Origin: an uncultured delta proteobacterium
GTDB lineage: Bacteria; Myxococcota_A; Polyangia; Polyangiales; Polyangiaceae
Assembly: GCA_963841435.1 (NCBI GenBank)
Contig: CAWJCS010000004.1
Coordinates: 32,001-96,000, forward strand
Reading direction: 5' to 3'
DNA: 64,000 bases
Part shown: positions 14,443 through 47,239 of the stretch, piece after piece
Numbering within the stretch: position 1 is the first letter of the stretch
How the letters are laid out: every line of letters begins with the position of its first letter
The notes under the pieces: model-generated
Told to the model about the DNA's origin: nothing
The model's database searches: none
The model's input: only the letters and a program-made list of their open reading frames with translations
Made by a program: the position numbers and the translations under genes

Positions 14443-14907
14443 GTGAAGATACCAAGCGCGCTCTTCGGCATCGTGAAGGAGGTGGCGCGACACCTCCTGC
14501 GCCGGCCCGTCGTCGGCATCGGGGCGGCGGCGCGCACGCCGGACGGCCGTCTGCTCCTCATCCGACGCGGCGACACGGGAACGTGGGCGCTACCGGGGGG
14601 CACGCTGGAATGGGGCGAGACGCTGCGCACGGCCTTGGCGCGCGAGGTCGAAGAAGAGACGGGCGCACGTGTGCTCGGGCTCGGACGCCTCGTCGGCGTC
14701 TATTCGGGACCCGAGCGCGATGCGCGCTTTCACGCCGTCACGGTGATCGTCGAGGCTTCCGTGAGCAGGCCCGAAAAACCACCCACAAACCCGCTCGAAA
14801 TCCTCGAGGTGCGGGCTTTTTCCGACGAGGAGATACCGAAGGACCTCGCCTTCGGCATGCAGGACATGCTCGGTGACGCGCGCGCCGGCCGCACGGTGTG
14901 GGAATGA
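14443..14907 (+). CDS. NUDIX hydrolase
   Basis: Nudix box GGTLEWGETLRTALAREVEEETG. Start is GTG 14443 or ATG 14431. Confidence 0.92.
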   Translation: MKIPSALFGIVKEVARHLLRRPVVGIGAAARTPDGRLLLIRRGDTGTWALPGGTLEWGETLRTALAREVEEETGARVLGLGRLVGVYSGPERDARFHAVTVIVEASVSRPEKPPTNPLEILEVRAFSDEEIPKDLAFGMQDMLGDARAGRTVWE

Positions 14908-15995
14908 AACCAACGCTCGTGTTCCTGCCACTCGTCGCGCTCTTCGGTACGGGCTGTGGCCTGCTCGGAGGCGTCCGCGTCGAGACGCTCGACGTGAGCG
15001 CCGAGAAGCCCTCGAACGTCGCGTTCTACGTGGCCGTGACCGAACAGGGGGAGCCCGTGACCGATCTCGAGCCGAAGGACTTCAAGATCTACGAAAACGA
15101 TCAGCTCCTTTCGCCCGGTCAGATCGGGCGGACGTTGCTCGCCGTCGACGCCGTGACCGATCAGCGCGCGCTCTTGCTCGTGGACTTGAGCGGCAATCCA
15201 GGCGTCGATCAGCGCGCGCTCTACGCCCAGGCTGCCGCGGCGTTCGTGCGCAAGCTCGTCGAGAGCATGCCGGTCAGCGTGCGCGCGTACGCCGGCGGAG
15301 AGCGGCTGCTCGGCGTGGCCGACTTCGCGCGTGGGGCGACGCGCGTCGCCGTTCCGGGCCTGGCGACGCTGAAATCATCTGATACGTCGCGCAATCTGAA
15401 CGGCGCGATCCGGGCCGGACTCGAAGAGCTCGACACGCACCAGGGCTCGACCGAAAAGCCCATCAAGCTCGGGACGCTCGTCGTGTTCGCTCGCGGCCCG
15501 GACCTTGCGGGTCGCGTCCCCGAGGACGCCGTTAGCGACGCGCTCGGCGAGACGAAGCACGCCGTGCTCGGCATCGTCATCGGCCCCGATGCTTCCCAGC
15601 TCGATTTCCTGCCGGGTGGCGTCACCCACTCGCAGGACGGCGACGCGCTGCCCATCGCGTTCGAGGAGGCCGGCTCGCGCGTCGCCAAGCTCGCCCACGG
15701 TCACTACCTGGTGGCGTACTGCTCGCCGGCGCGCGCCGGGACGCGCAACGTGCGTCTCGAGGTCGCGTACACGAACGCCGAGGGCAGCGAGCTCAGCGGC
15801 GACACCTACTACGAGCTCGACGCGACCGACTTTCGTTCGGGTTGCGACTCGAGCAAGCTGCCGCGCTTCGAGAAGCCGCCCGCGCAGAAGGGGGCCACGG
15901 CGACGCCCGCCACGGCGACGCCCGGTCCCGCGAGCGCCACCGAAGCGGAGCCCGAGGTCGTCGCACCGCCATCGGGCGGGGACTACGCCCAGTGA
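14904..15995 (+). CDS. VWA-like domain lipoprotein
   Basis: ATGA overlap with the NUDIX gene, lipobox FGTGC, DFKIYEND, LLLVDLSG (degenerate MIDAS) and YLVAYCSPAR. Confidence 0.8.
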   Translation: MKPTLVFLPLVALFGTGCGLLGGVRVETLDVSAEKPSNVAFYVAVTEQGEPVTDLEPKDFKIYENDQLLSPGQIGRTLLAVDAVTDQRALLLVDLSGNPGVDQRALYAQAAAAFVRKLVESMPVSVRAYAGGERLLGVADFARGATRVAVPGLATLKSSDTSRNLNGAIRAGLEELDTHQGSTEKPIKLGTLVVFARGPDLAGRVPEDAVSDALGETKHAVLGIVIGPDASQLDFLPGGVTHSQDGDALPIAFEEAGSRVAKLAHGHYLVAYCSPARAGTRNVRLEVAYTNAEGSELSGDTYYELDATDFRSGCDSSKLPRFEKPPAQKGATATPATATPGPASATEAEPEVVAPPSGGDYAQ

Positions 15996-16360
15996 GCGCC
16001 CCGCCCGGCCCCAGCCCGGTGCGCGTCACGCTGGTGGAGGAGGAAGTGATCCGCGACGGCGGGCCCCGCACCGTGCGCTATTCCGTACGGCACAACGCGG
16101 GCTGGGTGCACGCGACCTCCCACCCGAGTGCGGCGGTAAAATCCCTGGATCGTGGCCCGGGGGTCGTGTTCCGAAGGCACGTCACGCTGCTGCTCGCCCC
16201 CGGCACCGAGGTCGAGCGGGTCGCGCTCGGTCCGGCGCGTCGCACTGCCTCGACGCTCGAGCACCTTACGGGTGGCGCGCGTGGTCCTCGGCAGCGACGG
16301 GACGCGACCCGGTTGCGCGTGGGCTCGAACGGCGCGCTCGAGCCCGAGGGTACAAAATAA
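15992..16360 (+). CDS. Hypothetical protein (122 aa)
   Basis: GTGA overlap with the upstream stop, GC3-biased codons, and a stop immediately before the terminator hairpin. Confidence 0.65.
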   Translation: MSAPPGPSPVRVTLVEEEVIRDGGPRTVRYSVRHNAGWVHATSHPSAAVKSLDRGPGVVFRRHVTLLLAPGTEVERVALGPARRTASTLEHLTGGARGPRQRRDATRLRVGSNGALEPEGTK

Positions 16361-16397
16361 CGCGAGGGCGGCGTCGGTTTCCCGAGCCGCCCTCGCG
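16354..16397 (-). terminator. Intrinsic terminator for a minus-strand transcript (possibly bidirectional)
   Basis: 12-bp stem 16361-16372/16386-16397 plus an inner 4-bp stem with a GAAA loop (minus sense), followed on the minus strand by UUAUUUU. Confidence 0.85.
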
Positions 16398-18059
16398 GAA
16401 GCTGCTTGCCAGTGGTGGGCGCCATCGCGCCGCCTGCCGAGGTTCTCACCGGCTCCCCGATCCGGAGATCGGGGCATCGTTGACGACGAGTGGGTTTTCC
16501 GAACATCGTGACCGCTCGGGTTCGCGCCCATTGGTCACGCGAGGATGGCGACGGTGTTGGCGTTCGCCAGCTTCGATCGACGGGTGCCGGTTGCATCTCG
16601 CCCTCGTGGGGCTCGGCGCGGCGCAAGCGCCACGCGTGCCGGACCCTCTGCGCCGTTGGCTGAGAGAGCCCAGGGTCGGTGCCGTCGATGTCTGACGCTC
16701 CCTGTCGGCTCGCGGCCACCCCGCGCCGGCTTTCCAAGCTGCCGGCCGAGGCCGCCGACCCTTTCGGGTCGGAGCCGCGTGCCCAGGGCACCGGGGCGCC
16801 CACACCCGGATTAGGGATGCAGAGCCACGTGGTGCCCGAAGCGTCTCGTCCTGTCGATGCTCGCAGTGTTGCCACCGTGACTGCCGATCCCTGGCCTTTG
16901 GCCAACGACGCGGGGCAGGACGGGCCGAGCTTCCAGGCGCCTCCGCGCGGCTCCGTCGAGAGCACACGCGGCCACGCCGTGGATCGGGCCGGCCGAGCGT
17001 CCTTGCGGAACTCTGCCTGCCCTGGACCCGTCGATCGAGGACGTGCAAACCCACTTGTCAAAGATCAGCACCCGCGGTTCCGTGTCGGATTGCCGTCGCC
17101 GGGCCCGTTAGGGTCGGCGAGCGGCGGGCGTTGCGATTCACGTCGCTTCACCCGCTTCGGCTTCCGGACCCGCGCTCCGCATCGGCGTTCTCTTCCGAGG
17201 GGGGGCACGGCCCGTTGGCCTCTGACGCTTCCGGGCTCGCGGGGCGAGCGGTCTTGCGACGCACTCGAACCACGCACCCTGCACCTGCCGCCCCGGAGAC
17301 TCTGGCGTGAACCGAGACCCGGATGCGAGCGGGTGAGAAGCGCCTTCCATCGACGACGAGAGCCCAAAAGCTCGCGCCCCGCACATCGCTGTGCGGGCAT
17401 GCCGCGCATTCGGCGAACGGGGGACGAGTCCCACGCACGCCTAGACTCACCCGGTCCGACACGGCCGCAACCGCGCCCGACTCGGGGGAACCACACAGCA
17501 AGCGCCGACTTCTGCAGTCGACACGAAACCCGAGCACACCCGCCGGTGACCCGTTACCTCGTCCGCCGCGCGGTCACCCTCGCGGCGGTTGCCAGGTTTG
17601 GCTACGAGCGGCGAGATGCGAGCTTTCGCTCGAGCCCACCGGCCGTGTCGCCCCTCTCGAGCACGCACATGGCTGTGCGGAGGCCCAGGAGGAGACGGTC
17701 ACGGGCTCCCTTCGTCGTCGTGCTCGCGGGTGGCGCAGCCTGGAGCGCTGTGCACTCACGAGTTGACCGAGGCGATCACCATGTGCCCGCGCGAACGGAC
17801 GCACGGTGGTTGCCGCCAGGAAGCCTTCCCGCCACGAGATGCCGCGCCCGGAGGCGCTGCACGCCACCACCACTAGGGTGGCAAACGACGCTTTTTTCGC
17901 GCGCCGCGCGACTGCCCTCGACGAGGCCAGGGCGCAAACGTGCGGCAACGAGCACCGACCAGGGTGGCTCAGCTGCCAGCCCGGTCGCCGCCCGCTGCGG
18001 CGTCCCCGTGACGTTCTGCGAAACGTGTCACCCGCGAGCAGATGTGCCGCGAGCTTCAT
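16354..18059 (-). ncRNA. Candidate ~1.7 kb highly structured non-coding RNA of unknown class
   Basis: No credible CDS in any frame. Flanked by a promoter and a terminator on the minus strand. Many hairpins carry GAAA/GCAA/GCGA/GUGA/UCCG/CUUG loops in minus sense, and there are multiple 9-15 bp long-range complementarities. Confidence 0.75.
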
Positions 18060-18064
18060 TAAAT

Positions 18065-18093
18065 AATCTAACCACCGAAGCGTCATGATTCAA
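18065..18093 (-). promoter_or_regulatory. sigma70-like promoter driving the candidate ncRNA
   Basis: Minus strand TTGAAT (18093-18088), 17-bp spacer, TAGATT (18070-18065) and an AT-rich discriminator. Predicted TSS ~18057-18059. Confidence 0.75.
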
Positions 18094-18199
18094 GCCCAAA
18101 ACGCGCATGATCGTTGCTATTTTTTTCCACAGCTTGTCTTCAGGTTTCGGTCCCGCCGGGGTTGATGTAGTGAATCGTGCTCTCGACCAAGGATAAAAA

Positions 18200-18406
18200 G
18201 TGCCGATCGATCTTGGGATTCTGCAGGGTGAGCGCGACCTACTCAGGGAAGCGCTGCGTGAGACGGAAGCCGACGTCCGCAAGGTCGAGGCAGATCTCAA
18301 GACGCTTCGCCAGCGCGAGATCCAGACGAAGCGCGAGATTGAAGCGCTCACGACTCTGATTGAGATGAAAGAGCAGCGCGACGCGAAGGGACCGGACGCC
18401 GGCTAG
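18200..18406 (+). CDS. Small coiled-coil protein (68 aa)
   Basis: AAGGA SD-like motif before the GTG start and a heptad-rich charged helix LREALRETEADVRKVEADLKTLRQRE. Confidence 0.75.
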   Translation: MPIDLGILQGERDLLREALRETEADVRKVEADLKTLRQREIQTKREIEALTTLIEMKEQRDAKGPDAG

Positions 18407-18409
18407 CGC

Positions 18410-18826
18410 TCAGAGCTTCGTCTTGCCGAGCTCGAGGACGCGGGCGAACTCGCCCGGCGTGACCGGTACCACCGAGAGGCGAGAACGCCTCAAGAGCTGG
18501 ATCGAGGCGAGCTTCTTGTCGGCGCGAATGGCTTCGAGTGAAACGGGGCTGGCCAGCGCCTTCACGGGCGCCACGTTAACGGCGGACCAGTCGCCCTCCT
18601 TCGCGGTCGGATCGGGGTAGGCCGTGCGCGCGACCTTGGCTACGCCGACGACTTCCTTGCCCTCGTTCGAGTGATAGAAGAGCAGGAGATCGCCCTTCTT
18701 CATGGCACGCAGGTTGTTGCGCGCCTCGAAGTTTCTGACGCCGTCCCAGCGCGTGAGCTTGTCCTTCTGCAGCGTTTCGAAGGCGTATTTGTAGGGCTCG
18801 CTCTTCACCAGGAAATGAGCCGGCAT
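18410..18826 (-). CDS. EVE domain-containing protein
   Basis: LVKSEP, WDGVRNFEARNNLRAMKKGD, FYHS, AYPDPT and RLSVVPVT motifs. Confidence 0.95.
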   Translation of the reverse strand: MPAHFLVKSEPYKYAFETLQKDKLTRWDGVRNFEARNNLRAMKKGDLLLFYHSNEGKEVVGVAKVARTAYPDPTAKEGDWSAVNVAPVKALASPVSLEAIRADKKLASIQLLRRSRLSVVPVTPGEFARVLELGKTKL

Positions 18827-18919
18827 GGCGCGGACGATAGACAAGCCCCGTGCTGCTTGGAAGCGCCCATCGCTCCGCGCGTCGCCCCCGCGGGCGTTCG
18901 CTCGATGCGCCGAGGGGGG

Positions 18920-20071
18920 TCAGGGTGCCGGAGCGAACCGTTTCGGTCGGTTGACGTCGTCGATGTCGACGTAGATCGGGCAGTGGTCGCTCAGGCGCTC
19001 GACGTCGCGCTCGGGCGGGTGGCCACCCGAGCAGCCGAGCTCCGCGCAATAGCCGGACACGACGAGCTTGCGCCCCGAGGGTAGCTCGCCCAGATCGCTC
19101 GCGGCCGCCCAGTCGAGCAACGTGGTGCGTCCCTCGTAGAAGTGCGAGCAGGCGGGTGCCGCGTCGAGCCGGCGCAGGGCGGGGGAGCGAGCGGCCAGGG
19201 TCCGGTCTGCTTCGGCGAGCTCTTCGAGCGCCGACACGGACGGGGAGCAACGAGGGCACCCCATGCTGTTCATGTCGCCGATCACGAGCACGTCGTCGTC
19301 ACCGCCGAGCGCGCGCGCGGCCGACACGGCATCGGCGAAGGAATTTAGCGACTTTTCCCGGAGCGAAAGCGCGCGGCGGTCGGTGCCGCTCTTCAGGTGG
19401 ACGGCGATCACCGCAAGGTCGAGCCCACCCGGGAAGGCGAAGCGCGCCGCGAGGCCGGGGCGAAGCTGGTCCTTGCAGGGCTCACCGTGCGGGTTGAGCG
19501 CGCCGACGGTCGCGCTGCCTAGCAGCCGGGCGCGGCGCGCATCGAAGAGCAGCCCTACGTGCTGCTGGGACGCCCGAGGGCAGTCGTCGAGAACCACCTC
19601 GAAACGGCCGCCCGTGATGAGGTCGAGCTCCGCGCGCAGGGCGGAAAGCGCCTGGCTCGGGCGCGCTCCCGGCTTGATCTCCTCGATGGCGAGCACGTCG
19701 ACGCCGAGGAAGGCGACGGCGCAGGCGAGCCATTTCACGTCCGTGCCGGGACCCTTGGGTGACTTGCCGGGCCTGCCATCGGGAAACCAATGCAGGTTCC
19801 ACGCGCCGAGCCGTGCGACGCCGGCCGGCCGTCGCGCCCCAGCGTGGGCGAGGGCTGCCCGGCATGCGTCCGGGTCGTGAAAGGGCGACGCCGAAGGGAG
19901 CGGGGCGCCCTTTTTCGCCGATGTCGAAGGGCGCGCTGCGTGTTGGCCGGCGTCGCGCGAGCGGGGCCGGTGCTTTCCCGGCTCGGCATGGCTCGTCGTC
20001 CGGCGGGAGGCGCCGAACAGCGCCACGAGCACGATCCCGATGAGGACGACGAGCGCGCGCGTTCGCTTCAA
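18920..20071 (-). CDS. Exported endonuclease/exonuclease/phosphatase (EEP) family protein
   Basis: AWNLHWF, AIEEI, VHLKSG, IGDMN and SDHCPI motifs with an N-terminal membrane anchor. Confidence 0.9.
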   Translation of the reverse strand: MKRTRALVVLIGIVLVALFGASRRTTSHAEPGKHRPRSRDAGQHAARPSTSAKKGAPLPSASPFHDPDACRAALAHAGARRPAGVARLGAWNLHWFPDGRPGKSPKGPGTDVKWLACAVAFLGVDVLAIEEIKPGARPSQALSALRAELDLITGGRFEVVLDDCPRASQQHVGLLFDARRARLLGSATVGALNPHGEPCKDQLRPGLAARFAFPGGLDLAVIAVHLKSGTDRRALSLREKSLNSFADAVSAARALGGDDDVLVIGDMNSMGCPRCSPSVSALEELAEADRTLAARSPALRRLDAAPACSHFYEGRTTLLDWAAASDLGELPSGRKLVVSGYCAELGCSGGHPPERDVERLSDHCPIYVDIDDVNRPKRFAPAP

Positions 20072-21990
20072 TGCAACGCCGGGACTTCGATCTGCCTTTG
20101 CCGCTCGGCGCCCGGCCCGAGAAGCCTGACGAGGTCCGGCTTCTCGATGGTTTCACGGTCGAGCAGCTCGATGACGAGCCGGTCGAGCTCCGGGCGGCGT
20201 GATTGCAAGAGCTGGCCGGCCGCTTCGAGGGCCTCGGCGAGGAAGCGGCGCGCCTCACCCTCGATGAGGTGGACGGTCGCGTCGCTCGTCTGGCCTTCGG
20301 TGGCGAGCATCTGGCCGAGGAACGGGTGCTCGGTGCGATGCTCGTGGTAGACGGGGCCGACCTTCGGGCTCATCCCGTAGTGCGCGACCATCTTGAAGGC
20401 GATGTCCGTCGCGCGCTTGAGGTCGCTCTCGGCGCCCGATGACACGTTGCCGAGCACGGCGCGCTCCGCCGCATAGCCGCCCAGCAGCACGCGCAGCGTG
20501 TCACGGAGCTCGGGCTCGGTGAGGATGTGACGATCGGCTCCCGGCGCCTGCTGCGTGACCCCGAGCGCCATGCCGCGCGGGATGATGGTCACGCGGTGCA
20601 GCGGCTCCGCTGACTCCGAGAAGTGGGCGACCACGGCGTGCCCGGATTCGTGCACGGCAACACGCTTTCGTTCCAGCGGGTCGAGCTTGGTCTCGCGCGG
20701 ATCCCCGAGCACGATCTTGTCGTAAGCGTTCGTGAAATCGTTCATGCCCACGGCATCGGCGCCACGGCGCGTCGCGTTCAGGGCGGCCTCGTTGGCGAGG
20801 TTCGCGAGATCGGCGCCCGAGAAGCCGGGCGTGTTGCGCGCGATCTCGCCGAGGTCGACGTCGGGCACGAGTGGGATCTCGCGCGTGTGCACCTCGAGGA
20901 TCGCCTTTCTCGCGCCGACCTCGGGGCGATCGATGATCACGCGTCGATCGAAGCGTCCGGGCCGGAGGAGCGCGGGGTCGAGCACGTCGGGCCTGTTGGT
21001 GGCGGCGAGCACGATGGCGAGATCGTTGCGCGAAAAGCCGTCCATCTCCGAGAGCAGCTGGTTCAGCGTCTGCTCGCGCTCGTCGTGCCCGCCGCCGAGA
21101 CCGGAGCCGCGCGAGCGCCCCACGGCGTCGATCTCGTCGATGAACACGATCGCCGGAGCGACCTTCTTCGCTTCCTCGAACAGCTCTCGCACGCGCGATG
21201 CGCCGACGCCCACGAAAAGCTCGATGAACTCCGAGCCGTTGATCGAGAAAAACGGCACTCCCGCCTCGCCGGCCACCGCGCGGGCGAGCAGCGTCTTGCC
21301 GGTGCCGGGAGGGCCGACGAGCAGCACGCCGCGCGGCACCTTGCCGCCGAGGCGCCGAAAGCGTTCGGGCTCCTTCAAGAACTCGACGATCTCTTGCAGG
21401 TCCTGCTTGGCCGATTTGAGGCCGGCGACATCGTCGAACTTGGCCGAGACGTCCGTCTCCTTCTCGAAGCGGCGCGAGCGCGCCTTCAGCATCCCGAAGG
21501 GGCCGCCGCTGCCCATCATGCTCTGCGTGCGACGCGACAGGAACGTCCACACCCCGAGAATCAAGAGAAGCGGCAAAATCGAAACCAGAACCTGGAGCGC
21601 GAACGGCTGTTCCTCGCTCTTGAACTCGACCTTCACCTGCTTGTCGCGAAGCAGCGGCAACAGATCCCGATCTTCCTGGGAGGGGAGCAGCGTGCGAAAG
21701 GTCTGGCTCGTCGCGCCCTCGAGCTCGGTCGGCTTTTTGAGCTTGCCGAACAGGGTCTGCCCCTTGATGCTGACGCTCTCCACTTGGCCGTCGGAAGCGG
21801 CCTTGTAGAACGCCGTGTAGGGGATGAGCGGGCGACCGTCGTCGTGGCCCAGCATCTGGCTGACCCCCCACGAAATCGTCAGGGCGAGCGCTAGGAAGGC
21901 CCAGTTTCGCCAAGCGGACCCAGCGGGCGGGGGCGGTCCCGGTGCGCGCGACGGACGCGGTGGTGGCTCTCGGGTGCCGGGTGCCGACAT
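20068..21990 (-). CDS. ftsH: ATP-dependent zinc metalloprotease FtsH
   Basis: Two TM segments, [29 protein letters not shown] and the HESGH zinc motif. Confidence 0.97.
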
Positions 21991-45577: not shown

Positions 45578-45586
45578 CGGAGGCAG

Positions 45587-47239
45587 TTGGCGTTCGAGCG
45601 TGCCACCGTGCCCTTCGTGGCCTCTCGCGTCCTCTACGACGCCGAAGGGCTCCTCGTCGTCGATAAGCCGCCGGGCCTCGTCGTCCACGGCGGCGACGAA
45701 GCCCTGTCGGGTGACCTCGTGTCACGGCTTGCGGCGCACAGGCGCGCGCAGGGCCGCGACGACTACCTCGGCGTGCACCAGCGACTCGACGCGCCCACCT
45801 CGGGCGTGATGCTGTTCACGACGGCGCGCGAGAGGAACGCCGAGGTCGCGGCGGCCGTCGCCGAGCACAGGCTCGGACGCCGCTACGTCGCGGGCGTCAC
45901 GCTGCGCTCGACGGCGCTCGCCGCGCGGCTCGCGGCGGGACCCGAGCGGCTCGAGCACCGGCTCGCCACCGACCGGGGCGAGACACGTGTCGTCGCGGCG
46001 GGCGGCGTAAAGGCCGCGGCTCGCGTCGAGCTCGTCGAGCGGGTCGGTGCGCGCGCGCTCGTCGCGCTCGAGCCCGAGACGGGGCGCACCCATCAACTCC
46101 GCGTGCAGCTCGCCCACGAGGGTGCGCCCATCGGCGGCGACGCCGACTACGGCGGCGATCGCGCCCCGCGGCTCCTGCTCCATTCGAGCGAGCTGACGCT
46201 CGGCGAGCTGACGTTCGAGACCGCGCCGCCCGGGGCGCTCGCGCGCTGGGTGCGCGGCGAACCGGCGTCGCTCGGCGACGCGCGCGAGCTCGCGCGGGCC
46301 GTCGAGGACGCCGCCGTGCTCCGGGCGCCGCTCGCGAGCTTCACGGACGCGTACCGGCTAGCGAACGAGCTGGGCGACGGCTTGCCCGGCGTCACGATCG
46401 ACCGCTACGGCGACTTTGCCGTGCTCGTCGCCACGAGCGACGAGGCGGGTCGGCGCGCTTCGGAAATCGCCGAGGTGCTGCTGGAGCTCGGCGCGCGCGG
46501 CGTGTACCTGAAGAGGCGTCGCAAGCTCGACGCGCGGCGCGCCGACGCCACGCTCGCCCCCGAAGCACCGCTCGCGGGCGAGCCGGCGCCCGAACGGCTG
46601 CTCGTCTCCGAGCGCGGCGTCCGCCTCTGGGTCGAGCTCGGGCGTGGCCTCTCGACGGGGCTCTTCGTCGATCAGCGGGAAAACAGGCGCCGCGTGCGCG
46701 AGCTCGCGAAGGGCGCGCGCGTCTTGAACCTGTTTTGTTACACCTCGAGCTTCGGCGTCGCGGCGGCGCTCGGCGGCGCGCGCGAGGTCGTGAGCGTCGA
46801 CAGCTCGGCGCCCGCGCTCGCCCGTGCGCGCGAGAACTTCGGCGTTAACGGGGTCGGCGACTCCGCGCACCGTTTCGAGCACGCTGACGCGCTGGACTGG
46901 CTCGCGCGCGCGGCCCGCCGCGGCACGCGTTTCGACATCGTCGTGCTCGACCCACCGACCTTCTCGAGCTCGGCGGGGGGCGCGCCCTTCGCGGTTGGTG
47001 AGCACTACGCCGGCGCCGCGGCGCGCGCGCTCGGCGTCCTCGCTCCCGGTGGTCGTCTGTTCGCCGTCACGAACCACAGAAAGACGAGCCGCGGGCGGCT
47101 GCGCGAGATCGTGCGGCGCGCGGCGGCCGAGGCCCGCGTTGACGTGGCTCAGCTCAAGGATCTGCCCGCGGCGTTCGACTGCCCGGACGGCCCCGACGGC
47201 CCCGTGCCGTCGAAGAGCGTGCTACTCACGCGAAAATGA
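45587..47239 (+). CDS. Fusion of RluA-family pseudouridine synthase and RlmI/RlmK-like SAM methyltransferase
   Basis: N-half DKPPGL, QRLDAPTSG, TGRTHQLR, PIGGD. C-half GLPGVTIDRYG, TGLFVDQRENR, VLNLFCYT, VVLDPPTF. Confidence 0.9.
   Translation: MAFERATVPFVASRVLYDAEGLLVVDKPPGLVVHGGDEALSGDLVSRLAAHRRAQGRDDYLGVHQRLDAPTSGVMLFTTARERNAEVAAAVAEHRLGRRYVAGVTLRSTALAARLAAGPERLEHRLATDRGETRVVAAGGVKAAARVELVERVGARALVALEPETGRTHQLRVQLAHEGAPIGGDADYGGDRAPRLLLHSSELTLGELTFETAPPGALARWVRGEPASLGDARELARAVEDAAVLRAPLASFTDAYRLANELGDGLPGVTIDRYGDFAVLVATSDEAGRRASEIAEVLLELGARGVYLKRRRKLDARRADATLAPEAPLAGEPAPERLLVSERGVRLWVELGRGLSTGLFVDQRENRRRVRELAKGARVLNLFCYTSSFGVAAALGGAREVVSVDSSAPALARARENFGVNGVGDSAHRFEHADALDWLARAARRGTRFDIVVLDPPTFSSSAGGAPFAVGEHYAGAAARALGVLAPGGRLFAVTNHRKTSRGRLREIVRRAAAEARVDVAQLKDLPAAFDCPDGPDGPVPSKSVLLTRK

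Follow-up and report, generated by a model that had tools for sequence, protein, structure and literature searches.

In the genome of an uncultured member of the Polyangiaceae (assembly GCA_963841435.1, contig CAWJCS010000004.1), a long gap between two protein-coding genes holds what appears to be the gene for a large RNA. The gap lies in the window analysed here, a stretch of 64,000 nt in which all positions are counted from the first letter. Judging from the window and its homologues, we consider it likely that positions 16352-18058 are a stand-alone minus-strand gene for a very large structured non-coding RNA (ncRNA) that belongs to no described family. The predicted transcript appears to represent a new family, with three domains and a length of about 1.5-1.9 kb. 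The features of the locus are listed below, with the small open reading frame (ORF) next to the RNA given last.

16352-18058, minus strand: predicted transcription unit of about 1.7 kb, from the conserved 5' block to the U-tract, both ends putative.
18123-18131, plus strand: conserved upstream element TTTTCCACA, which reads TGTGGAnAA on the RNA strand.
18065-18093, minus strand: promoter-like site predicted from its letters, TTGAAT (18093-18088) and TAGATT (18070-18065) with a 17-nt spacer.
18039-18058, minus strand: near-invariant 5' block, G(A/G)AAG(C/U)UCGCGGCACAYCUGC, kept in all of the sequences that cover it (16 of 21), over 5 genera.
17538-18039, minus strand: domain I, closed by helix 1 (18039-18023 with 17554-17538).
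17068-17537, minus strand: domain II, closed by helices 21 and 22 (17537-17517 with 17089-17068).
16480-17064, minus strand: domain III, closed by helices 36 and 37 (17064-17047 with 16499-16480) in 21 of 21 sequences.
16408-16474, minus strand: 3' tail, made up of a hairpin (16474-16455) and a branched element (16453-16408), the most conserved stretch.
16352-16397, minus strand: terminator, with a 12-bp GC-rich stem (16397-16386 with 16372-16361), a 13-nt loop and UUAUUUUGU (16360-16352).
18200-18406, plus strand: small ORF of 68 aa, coiled-coil-like and outside the RNA, the divergent neighbour, with third-position variation in the alignment.

The region 16361-18058 is non-coding. Codon-position GC (GC3) periodicity was absent across 16360-18200, no Pfam family was assigned to any of the region's six long ORFs, and when 40 six-frame pieces were compared with three related genomes the sole match at the protein level was the neighbouring small ORF. 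The corresponding comparison between genera gave weak matches only, scattered over all six frames. A coding gene or pseudogene was ruled out by this lack of periodicity, Pfam families and protein conservation, and a repeat or multi-copy element was ruled out because the region matched only itself in the window's own genome. Rfam 15, which covers GOLLD, ROOL, OLE, HEARO, raiA, the rRNAs, RNase P and group I and II introns, gave no match at gathering thresholds in the 64-kb window or in seven homologous loci (48 kb in total). At E-values up to 10, only four matches were found in 16200-18450, all under the gathering score and with E of at least 0.43.

BLAST located the spacer in 3 of the 46 other genomes of the genus, each time with its gene neighbourhood preserved, and a conserved 23-base motif matched 12 metagenome contigs (8 of them distinct) as well as the same three congeners. 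Removal of near-duplicates left 12 distinct sequences in graded clades; the 12-sequence alignment, A1, is in minus-strand sense and has 1828 columns. A covariance model, R1, covers the 3' 182 positions of the RNA. Within the genus, R1 was positive in 4 of 47 genomes (one of them the window's), with one copy each, and in 10 of 151 genomes (5 of 89 genera) of a family sample, again with a single copy per genome. It matched no genome of the other 23 families in an order sample and none of the 139 genomes outside the family in a phylum sample. These surveys were samples searched under strict filters, with 17 candidates scored per genome in the family sample, so that "not found" is not "absent", and the genus tallies in this text (3 of 46 and 4 of 47 for the RNA, 46 of 47 for the small ORF) include genome G046, which is flagged as unpublished and from which no sequence was drawn.

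Outside the genus, nine genomes of four genera carry the RNA, giving five genera of soil myxobacteria with the window's own. Seven of these nine loci match the A1 profile over almost its full length (E of 1e-38 to 1e-53, 1.83-1.97 kb), and all nine contain a stretch of 2.3-2.5 kb without codon periodicity. Altogether, homology over the full length extends to 20 other sequences. In the window the RNA would be about 1.65-1.7 kb long; close relatives would have a shorter form of about 1.45-1.6 kb and the other genera a longer one of about 1.8-1.95 kb.

Consensus folds computed with RNAalifold revealed a conserved secondary structure. In minus-strand sense, the 67 helices of the A1 consensus comprise 539 pairs, and the share of paired cells is 89.6% (of 6037). 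The bases of 206 pairs changed on both sides, compared with 102±6 in per-pair shuffles (0 of 500 reached 206) and 66-75 with slid partners. Because the structure was derived from the same alignment as the pair counts, we also used nulls in which columns were shuffled within gap-pattern and conservation classes and the alignment was then re-folded. Seven such nulls gave energies of -711 to -755 and 71-84 pairs with two-sided changes, compared with -1041 and 206 for A1. The alignment of 21 sequences, including those from the other genera, reached an energy of -608.8 compared with -310 to -344 in six nulls, and 279 of its pairs changed on both sides compared with 88-126. Structure with compensatory changes above the level of nulls, which here are column shuffles, is the generic mark of a structured ncRNA.

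Each of the three domains is closed by a long-range helix. Helix 1, which closes domain I, has 14 pairs with 95.7% of cells paired, and within this domain helices 2, 12, 13 and 14 have 6, 9, 13 and 8 pairs, respectively, that changed on both sides. All 21 sequences form the closing duplexes of domains II and III, and compensatory changes in these duplexes are numerous. At the closure of domain III, a compensatory change from G-C to A-U occurs in genomes G149 and G297, and a C-G/G-C swap separates most of the window's clade from the rest. Domain II of the window carries four insertions found in the window only (17485-17501, 17406-17450, 17337-17375 and 17292-17315). In the 3' tail, which lies within model R1, 98.5-100% of cells are paired in helices 62-66, and the conservation of this stretch is evident from a mean column identity of 84% in a further alignment, A2.

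Two smaller observations concern the fold. The motif TCTGACGCT, which is invariant and reads AGCGUCAGA on the RNA strand, is found at 16691-16699 and 17221-17229 of the plus strand, and both copies lie in the 3' strand of helices that close sub-domains (26 and 48), which hints at duplication of an internal module. Pairing of a 5' leader with a 3' trailer (GGAAG with CUUCC, 4-7 bp) can be drawn in most sequences and shows no covariation; we do not claim it.

The predicted 3' end of the RNA is marked by a terminator. Its stem is helix 67 of the consensus, with compensatory changes, and a scan gave a terminator-like match here on the minus strand. The minus-strand tract that follows the hairpin at 16361-16397 is TTATTTTGT, which overlaps the TAA stop codon (16358-16360) of the convergent plus-strand gene. 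At the homologous position in the other genera, a canonical hairpin followed by T6-T8 is present at nine of nine loci, for example a 14-bp stem then T8 in G184 and a 15-bp stem then T6 in G277. The element has the GC-rich hairpin and the U-run on the transcribed strand that characterise a Rho-independent terminator.

At the other end, the putative promoter recurs as TTGA and TAnnnT with equal spacing in the 6 covering sequences of the window's clade. A sigma-54 promoter in the GGCAC block was considered but not retained, since on visual inspection its GG-to-GC spacing falls 3 nt short of the consensus. In every genus a TGTGGAnAA element precedes the RNA's -35 region by about 30-60 nt. At the loci of the other genera (L062-L065 and L071-L075) its relative position is the same in nine of nine and the element is perfect in six, and in three genomes it occurs twice, at a distance of 23 nt. 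TGTGGAnAA is the reverse complement of the DnaA-box consensus, TTATCCACA, from which the window's TTTTCCACA differs by one mismatch.

The ends of several metagenome contigs fall near both predicted limits of the RNA. Contigs L019 and L022 start at the column of window position 18042 and contig L029 about 9 nt upstream of it, and five contigs end at 16394-16410, just short of the terminator stem. These could be assemblies derived from RNA, or assembly may have stopped where co-occurring species share identical blocks. Contigs L024 and L027 bear other genes at those junctions, and contig ends were not counted as evidence of expression. On L027 (1251-1325), the sequence departs from the RNA inside the conserved 3' domain and continues into part of a gene for an amino-acid kinase, which lies on the opposite strand; the contig reflects either a rearrangement or a chimera.

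Several results weigh against a stand-alone RNA gene. The promoter-like site is weak, with 8 of 12 consensus positions, and a promoter scan with a threshold of 9 of 12 found no site in the window or at two other loci. The ftsH gene, a gene for a 383-aa protein and an EVE-domain gene lie upstream on the RNA's strand, so read-through is possible, and the gene context reveals no function for the RNA. Its distribution is patchy and narrow, with 43 of the 47 genomes of the genus lacking a match. As for the structure, pairs were counted on the alignments that yielded it, and the nulls keep neither dinucleotides nor the tree. The window's own sequence forms 76% (398 of 524) of the consensus pairs, compared with 81.5-94.6% in the others. 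Four sequences from other genera, added by plain sequence-based alignment, form 58-62% of the A1 pairs compared with 41-52% in slid controls, a modest out-of-sample signal that was probably limited by alignment quality. Local z-scores for 150-nt folds were ordinary on the plus strand and just moderately negative on the minus strand.

The neighbouring genes bear on whether the RNA stands alone. Of the two genes that flank the RNA gene, one converges on it and the other diverges from it, and the context is one of housekeeping genes (RuvB, FtsH, a class II tRNA synthetase and YkuD) and not of a prophage. The same chromosomal neighbourhood is found in four species and is partly shared across genera. 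The divergent small ORF is conserved (tblastn E of about 1e-27) and has no Pfam family above cut-off; 3 nt separate its end from the stop codon of the EVE-domain gene (18410-18844), which is convergent with it. Of the 47 genomes of the genus, 46 have this ORF, and at five of the nine loci from other genera it divergently adjoins the RNA. In 20 of 20 compared congeners without the RNA, the small ORF is immediately preceded by coding DNA, and an nhmmer search of the upstream regions of these 20 with the A1 profile found no match. In most of them (L039-L057), some 2.4 kb ahead of the small ORF, codon periodicity is missing over several hundred bases that do not resemble the RNA profile. The convergent gene at 14898-16360 (plus strand) consists of two overlapping ORFs in different frames (14898-15995 and 15842-16360), neither with a Pfam family, and its codon-position GC switches near 15900; it may be two genes or contain a frameshift.

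This arrangement bears on the possibility that the RNA depends on a neighbour, either as a structured 3' extension or processed read-through of the operon of the ftsH, 383-aa and EVE genes, or as a cis element for the divergent small ORF or the convergent upstream gene. We consider such dependence quite unlikely. The genes at 18410-21990 do lie upstream on the same strand with no terminator found between them and the RNA, the promoter is weak, as noted, and the small ORF is adjacent both in the window's clade and at the five loci mentioned. However, the EVE gene was not found upstream of the RNA at the four loci tested in other genera, and the 5' block and upstream elements hold their position in all genera. 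The small ORF is also present in nearly every genome of the genus, whereas the RNA is present in four, and a three-domain fold of 1.6 kb far exceeds the needs of known cis elements.

The patchy distribution, both in the genus and across the family sample, would also suit the remnant of a mobile element, a non-autonomous RNA such as an intron-like or retroelement RNA without an ORF, or an RNA gene carried as an integration target. In addition, on contig L024 (1-119) an ORF with an HTH_17 domain (excisionase-type) reads into the RNA's first helix and replaces the usual promoter region. We regard a mobile origin as very unlikely, however, because the RNA is present once per genome with no copy elsewhere in the window's own genome, its neighbourhood is shared as described and consists of housekeeping genes, no Rfam intron or other family matched even at E-values up to 10, and the locus contains no reverse transcriptase or integrase. 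The L024 junction itself may be a chimera of the assembly, or it may mark where a mobile element inserted at the 5' end of the RNA.

A further alternative is that the region is an ordinary GC-rich spacer without RNA function, whose helices are chance complements in 70% GC DNA. This explanation bears directly on an earlier note, which had listed eight long-range pairings within 16489-17726 and read them as a multi-domain RNA fold with pseudoknots or kissing loops. Seven of the eight are exact reverse complements, the eighth (17351-17365/17703-17720) has 9+6 bp around a 3-nt bulge as claimed, and the GTGACC/GGTCAC hairpin said to flank 16514-16522 is present. In number, however, the listed helices are not in excess. 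The stretch 16489-17726 (1238 nt) contains 13 exact inverted repeats of at least 9 bp, compared with 8.5±2.9 in 300 dinucleotide-preserving shuffles of it, 10% of which reach 13; repeats of at least 10 bp number 6 compared with 2.5±1.5, and the longest, of 13 bp, is matched or exceeded in 6% of shuffles. As many as 25 of 51 same-sized tiles of the 64-kb window, mostly coding, also contain at least 13 such repeats (at least 9 bp), and the plus-strand minimum free energy (MFE) of the stretch has a z-score of -1.0 (25 shuffles). The similar helix counts in shuffles are essentially the outcome that the note itself had named as telling against its helices. One tile stands apart from the rest: 45807-47044 contains 62 exact inverted repeats of at least 9 bp, compared with a median of 12 across tiles, and lies within an ORF (45578-47239) with pseudouridine synthase and methyltransferase domains; a long ORF antisense to it likewise passes the GC3 filter.

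Conservation among homologues separates the listed pairings from the fold in which they lie. Over the 12 homologues, the structure proposed in the note pairs 63.2% of 739 cells, compared with the 89.6% of the consensus, and one pairing of the eight is conserved, namely 16489-97/17047-55, which is consensus helix 37 in the closure of domain III and retains its core in 12 of 12 sequences. The 13-bp helix (16573-16585/17026-17038) is specific to the window, and its arms pair elsewhere with compensatory changes, in helix 40 (17036-32/16860-56) and helix 54 (16690-85/16580-75). For the pairing 17080-89/17455-64, one arm falls in a poorly aligned stretch that is expanded in the window; in the consensus, 17080-89 pairs with 17519-29, a helix that an exact-complement search of the plus strand missed because it contains G·U on the minus strand. 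Neither of the proposed crossings is conserved. In 16514-22/17527-35, 4 of 9 pairs are kept in only 1 of 12 sequences, and the 5' arm of 17351-65/17703-20 lies inside a window-only insertion, with gaps in 11 of 12 sequences; as far as these two crossings are concerned, the conserved crossing pairs expected of an RNA cage or ribozyme were not found. The idea of a multi-domain fold held in that the domains are closed by long-range helices, highly paired and conserved, and failed in its strand, its limits and most of its helices. The listed pairings are largely chance complements inside a real RNA, and one is a true domain-closing helix. For the region as a whole, the spacer explanation, to which we give almost no weight, is already contradicted by full-length homology over five genera, by two to three times more compensatory pairs than in the re-folded nulls, by domain-closing helices kept in all 21 sequences despite sequence change, and by the conserved terminator; it holds for individual listed pairings only.

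The earlier note had also implied a structured RNA on the plus strand, which we consider equally improbable. Owing to Watson-Crick symmetry, the plus-strand consensus also beats its nulls, with an energy of -884 and 177 compensatory pairs for A1 and of -471 and 247 pairs for the 21 sequences. Nevertheless, the minus strand was superior by every measure. Its MFE z-score is -4.7 compared with the -1.0 of the plus strand, and its RNAalifold energies are -1041 compared with -884 (A1) and -608.8 compared with -471.0 (21 sequences). G·U pairs make up 10-16% of the consensus pairs, and invariant ones, such as those in helix 21, would become A·C mismatches on the plus strand. In the other genera, T-runs follow the hairpin on the minus-sense strand only. 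Folding energy, G·U pairs and the terminators of other genera thus place the RNA on the minus strand, where it also reaches beyond the limits drawn in the note, to about 16361-18058.

Least probable of all is a role at the level of DNA, for instance as a replication origin or as a locus that titrates DnaA, with structure as a by-product: the long non-coding stretch, the DnaA-box-like TGTGGAnAA upstream of the RNA in all genera (with its two copies in three genomes) and a local change in the sign of GC skew in the window could suggest it, but the 64 kb contain 2 boxes with at most one mismatch compared with 1.4 expected, one of them in the spacer, dnaA (C5:959575) and dnaN (C5:1588837) lie on another contig than the locus (C4, at 48-50 kb), the within-contig skew minimum that stands out most clearly is that of C5, near 1.70 Mb, local skew tracks gene orientation, and strand-asymmetric folding energy, G·U pairs and intrinsic terminators indicate RNA. 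Boxes, skew and the position of dnaA and dnaN do not identify an oriC here, in a comparison that is incomplete for an assembly in 6 contigs. The dnaA and dnaN genes are about 630 kb apart on C5, with the cumulative GC-skew minimum of that contig nearer dnaN, and the window's own 7.78-Mb genome contains no perfect DnaA box.

We favour a stand-alone gene for a structured RNA, which would be expressed as follows. Transcription would start at the weak sigma-70-like promoter (18093-18065), just upstream of the near-invariant 5' block, run leftward and end at the hairpin-plus-U terminator that abuts the convergent gene's stop codon. The transcript, presumably stable, would fold into three large domains, each with its long-range closing helix, followed by the highly conserved 3' tail. 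Because its neighbours are convergent and divergent, the RNA cannot be the leader of a downstream gene on the same strand, and we read it as one that would act in trans through its fold. By analogy with OLE, it would most probably be the core or scaffold of a ribonucleoprotein, with protein partners that we can only postulate. A bolder proposal, which we think doubtful, is that it founds what would be the largest structured RNA class of bacteria outside the ribosome and introns, as a stable three-domain RNA machine of 1.5-1.9 kb (a ribozyme or a self-assembling particle). The DnaA-box-like element would then link its transcription to the cell cycle.

Large ornate RNAs are seldom met with in bacteria, and the biology that followed from each new class was unexpected. 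ROOL is about 580 nt long, and the Polyangiaceae RNA differs from it in being much longer, in having no match to it and in that the proposed crossing pairings are not conserved. The two are alike as large ornate RNAs with many helices, and ROOL was the source of the earlier idea of an RNA cage; it is phage- or prophage-encoded and has several pseudoknots, according to excerpts of PMC12286853. GOLLD resembles our candidate as a large, ornate, multi-domain bacterial ncRNA with a stand-alone gene, recognised by conserved structure and with its function unassigned. In the same excerpts (PMC12286853), it is the largest of three classes at a little over 800 nt, phage- or prophage-encoded and often near tRNA islands; the Polyangiaceae RNA, in contrast, is 1.5-1.9 kb long, chromosomal, surrounded by housekeeping genes, found in one myxobacterial family and without an Rfam match. 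OLE, which excerpted accounts describe as an RNA of about 600 nt from Bacillota with known partner proteins, is likewise a large structured chromosomal ncRNA of narrow taxonomic range; in contrast to it, the Polyangiaceae RNA has no linked partner gene and shows no sequence or model match to OLE.

With 16S rRNA and RNase P RNA, the Polyangiaceae RNA shares large domains with long-range closing helices and highly conserved single-stranded blocks between variable helices, and it is in the size class of 16S rRNA. However, it has no Rfam match even at E-values up to 10, is single-copy and family-restricted, and has no linked tRNA or rRNA genes. Group II introns are also large multi-domain RNAs of patchy distribution, but here there is no Rfam intron match and no intron-encoded protein, and the RNA is intergenic and single-copy with its own terminator. 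A large structured RNA of Polyangiaceae or Myxococcota was not found in literature searches or in excerpts of PMC11109978 and PMC5737381, papers whose candidate lists are largely in their supplements, so that an earlier listing is possible.

If the transcript is confirmed, Myxococcota would possess an RNA about twice the length of GOLLD. For comparison, OLE is part of a membrane-associated ribonucleoprotein, and GOLLD and ROOL assemble into RNA nanocages (excerpts of PMC12286853). With about 20 natural variants from five genera and extensive covariation, the RNA would lend itself directly to structure modelling, chemical probing and cryo-EM, and also to genetics, provided that a carrier strain can be cultured. 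Searches based on composition, which look for GC-rich islands in AT-rich genomes, are blind to genes of this kind, and the locus suggests that the long non-coding gaps of 70% GC genomes can conceal RNA genes.

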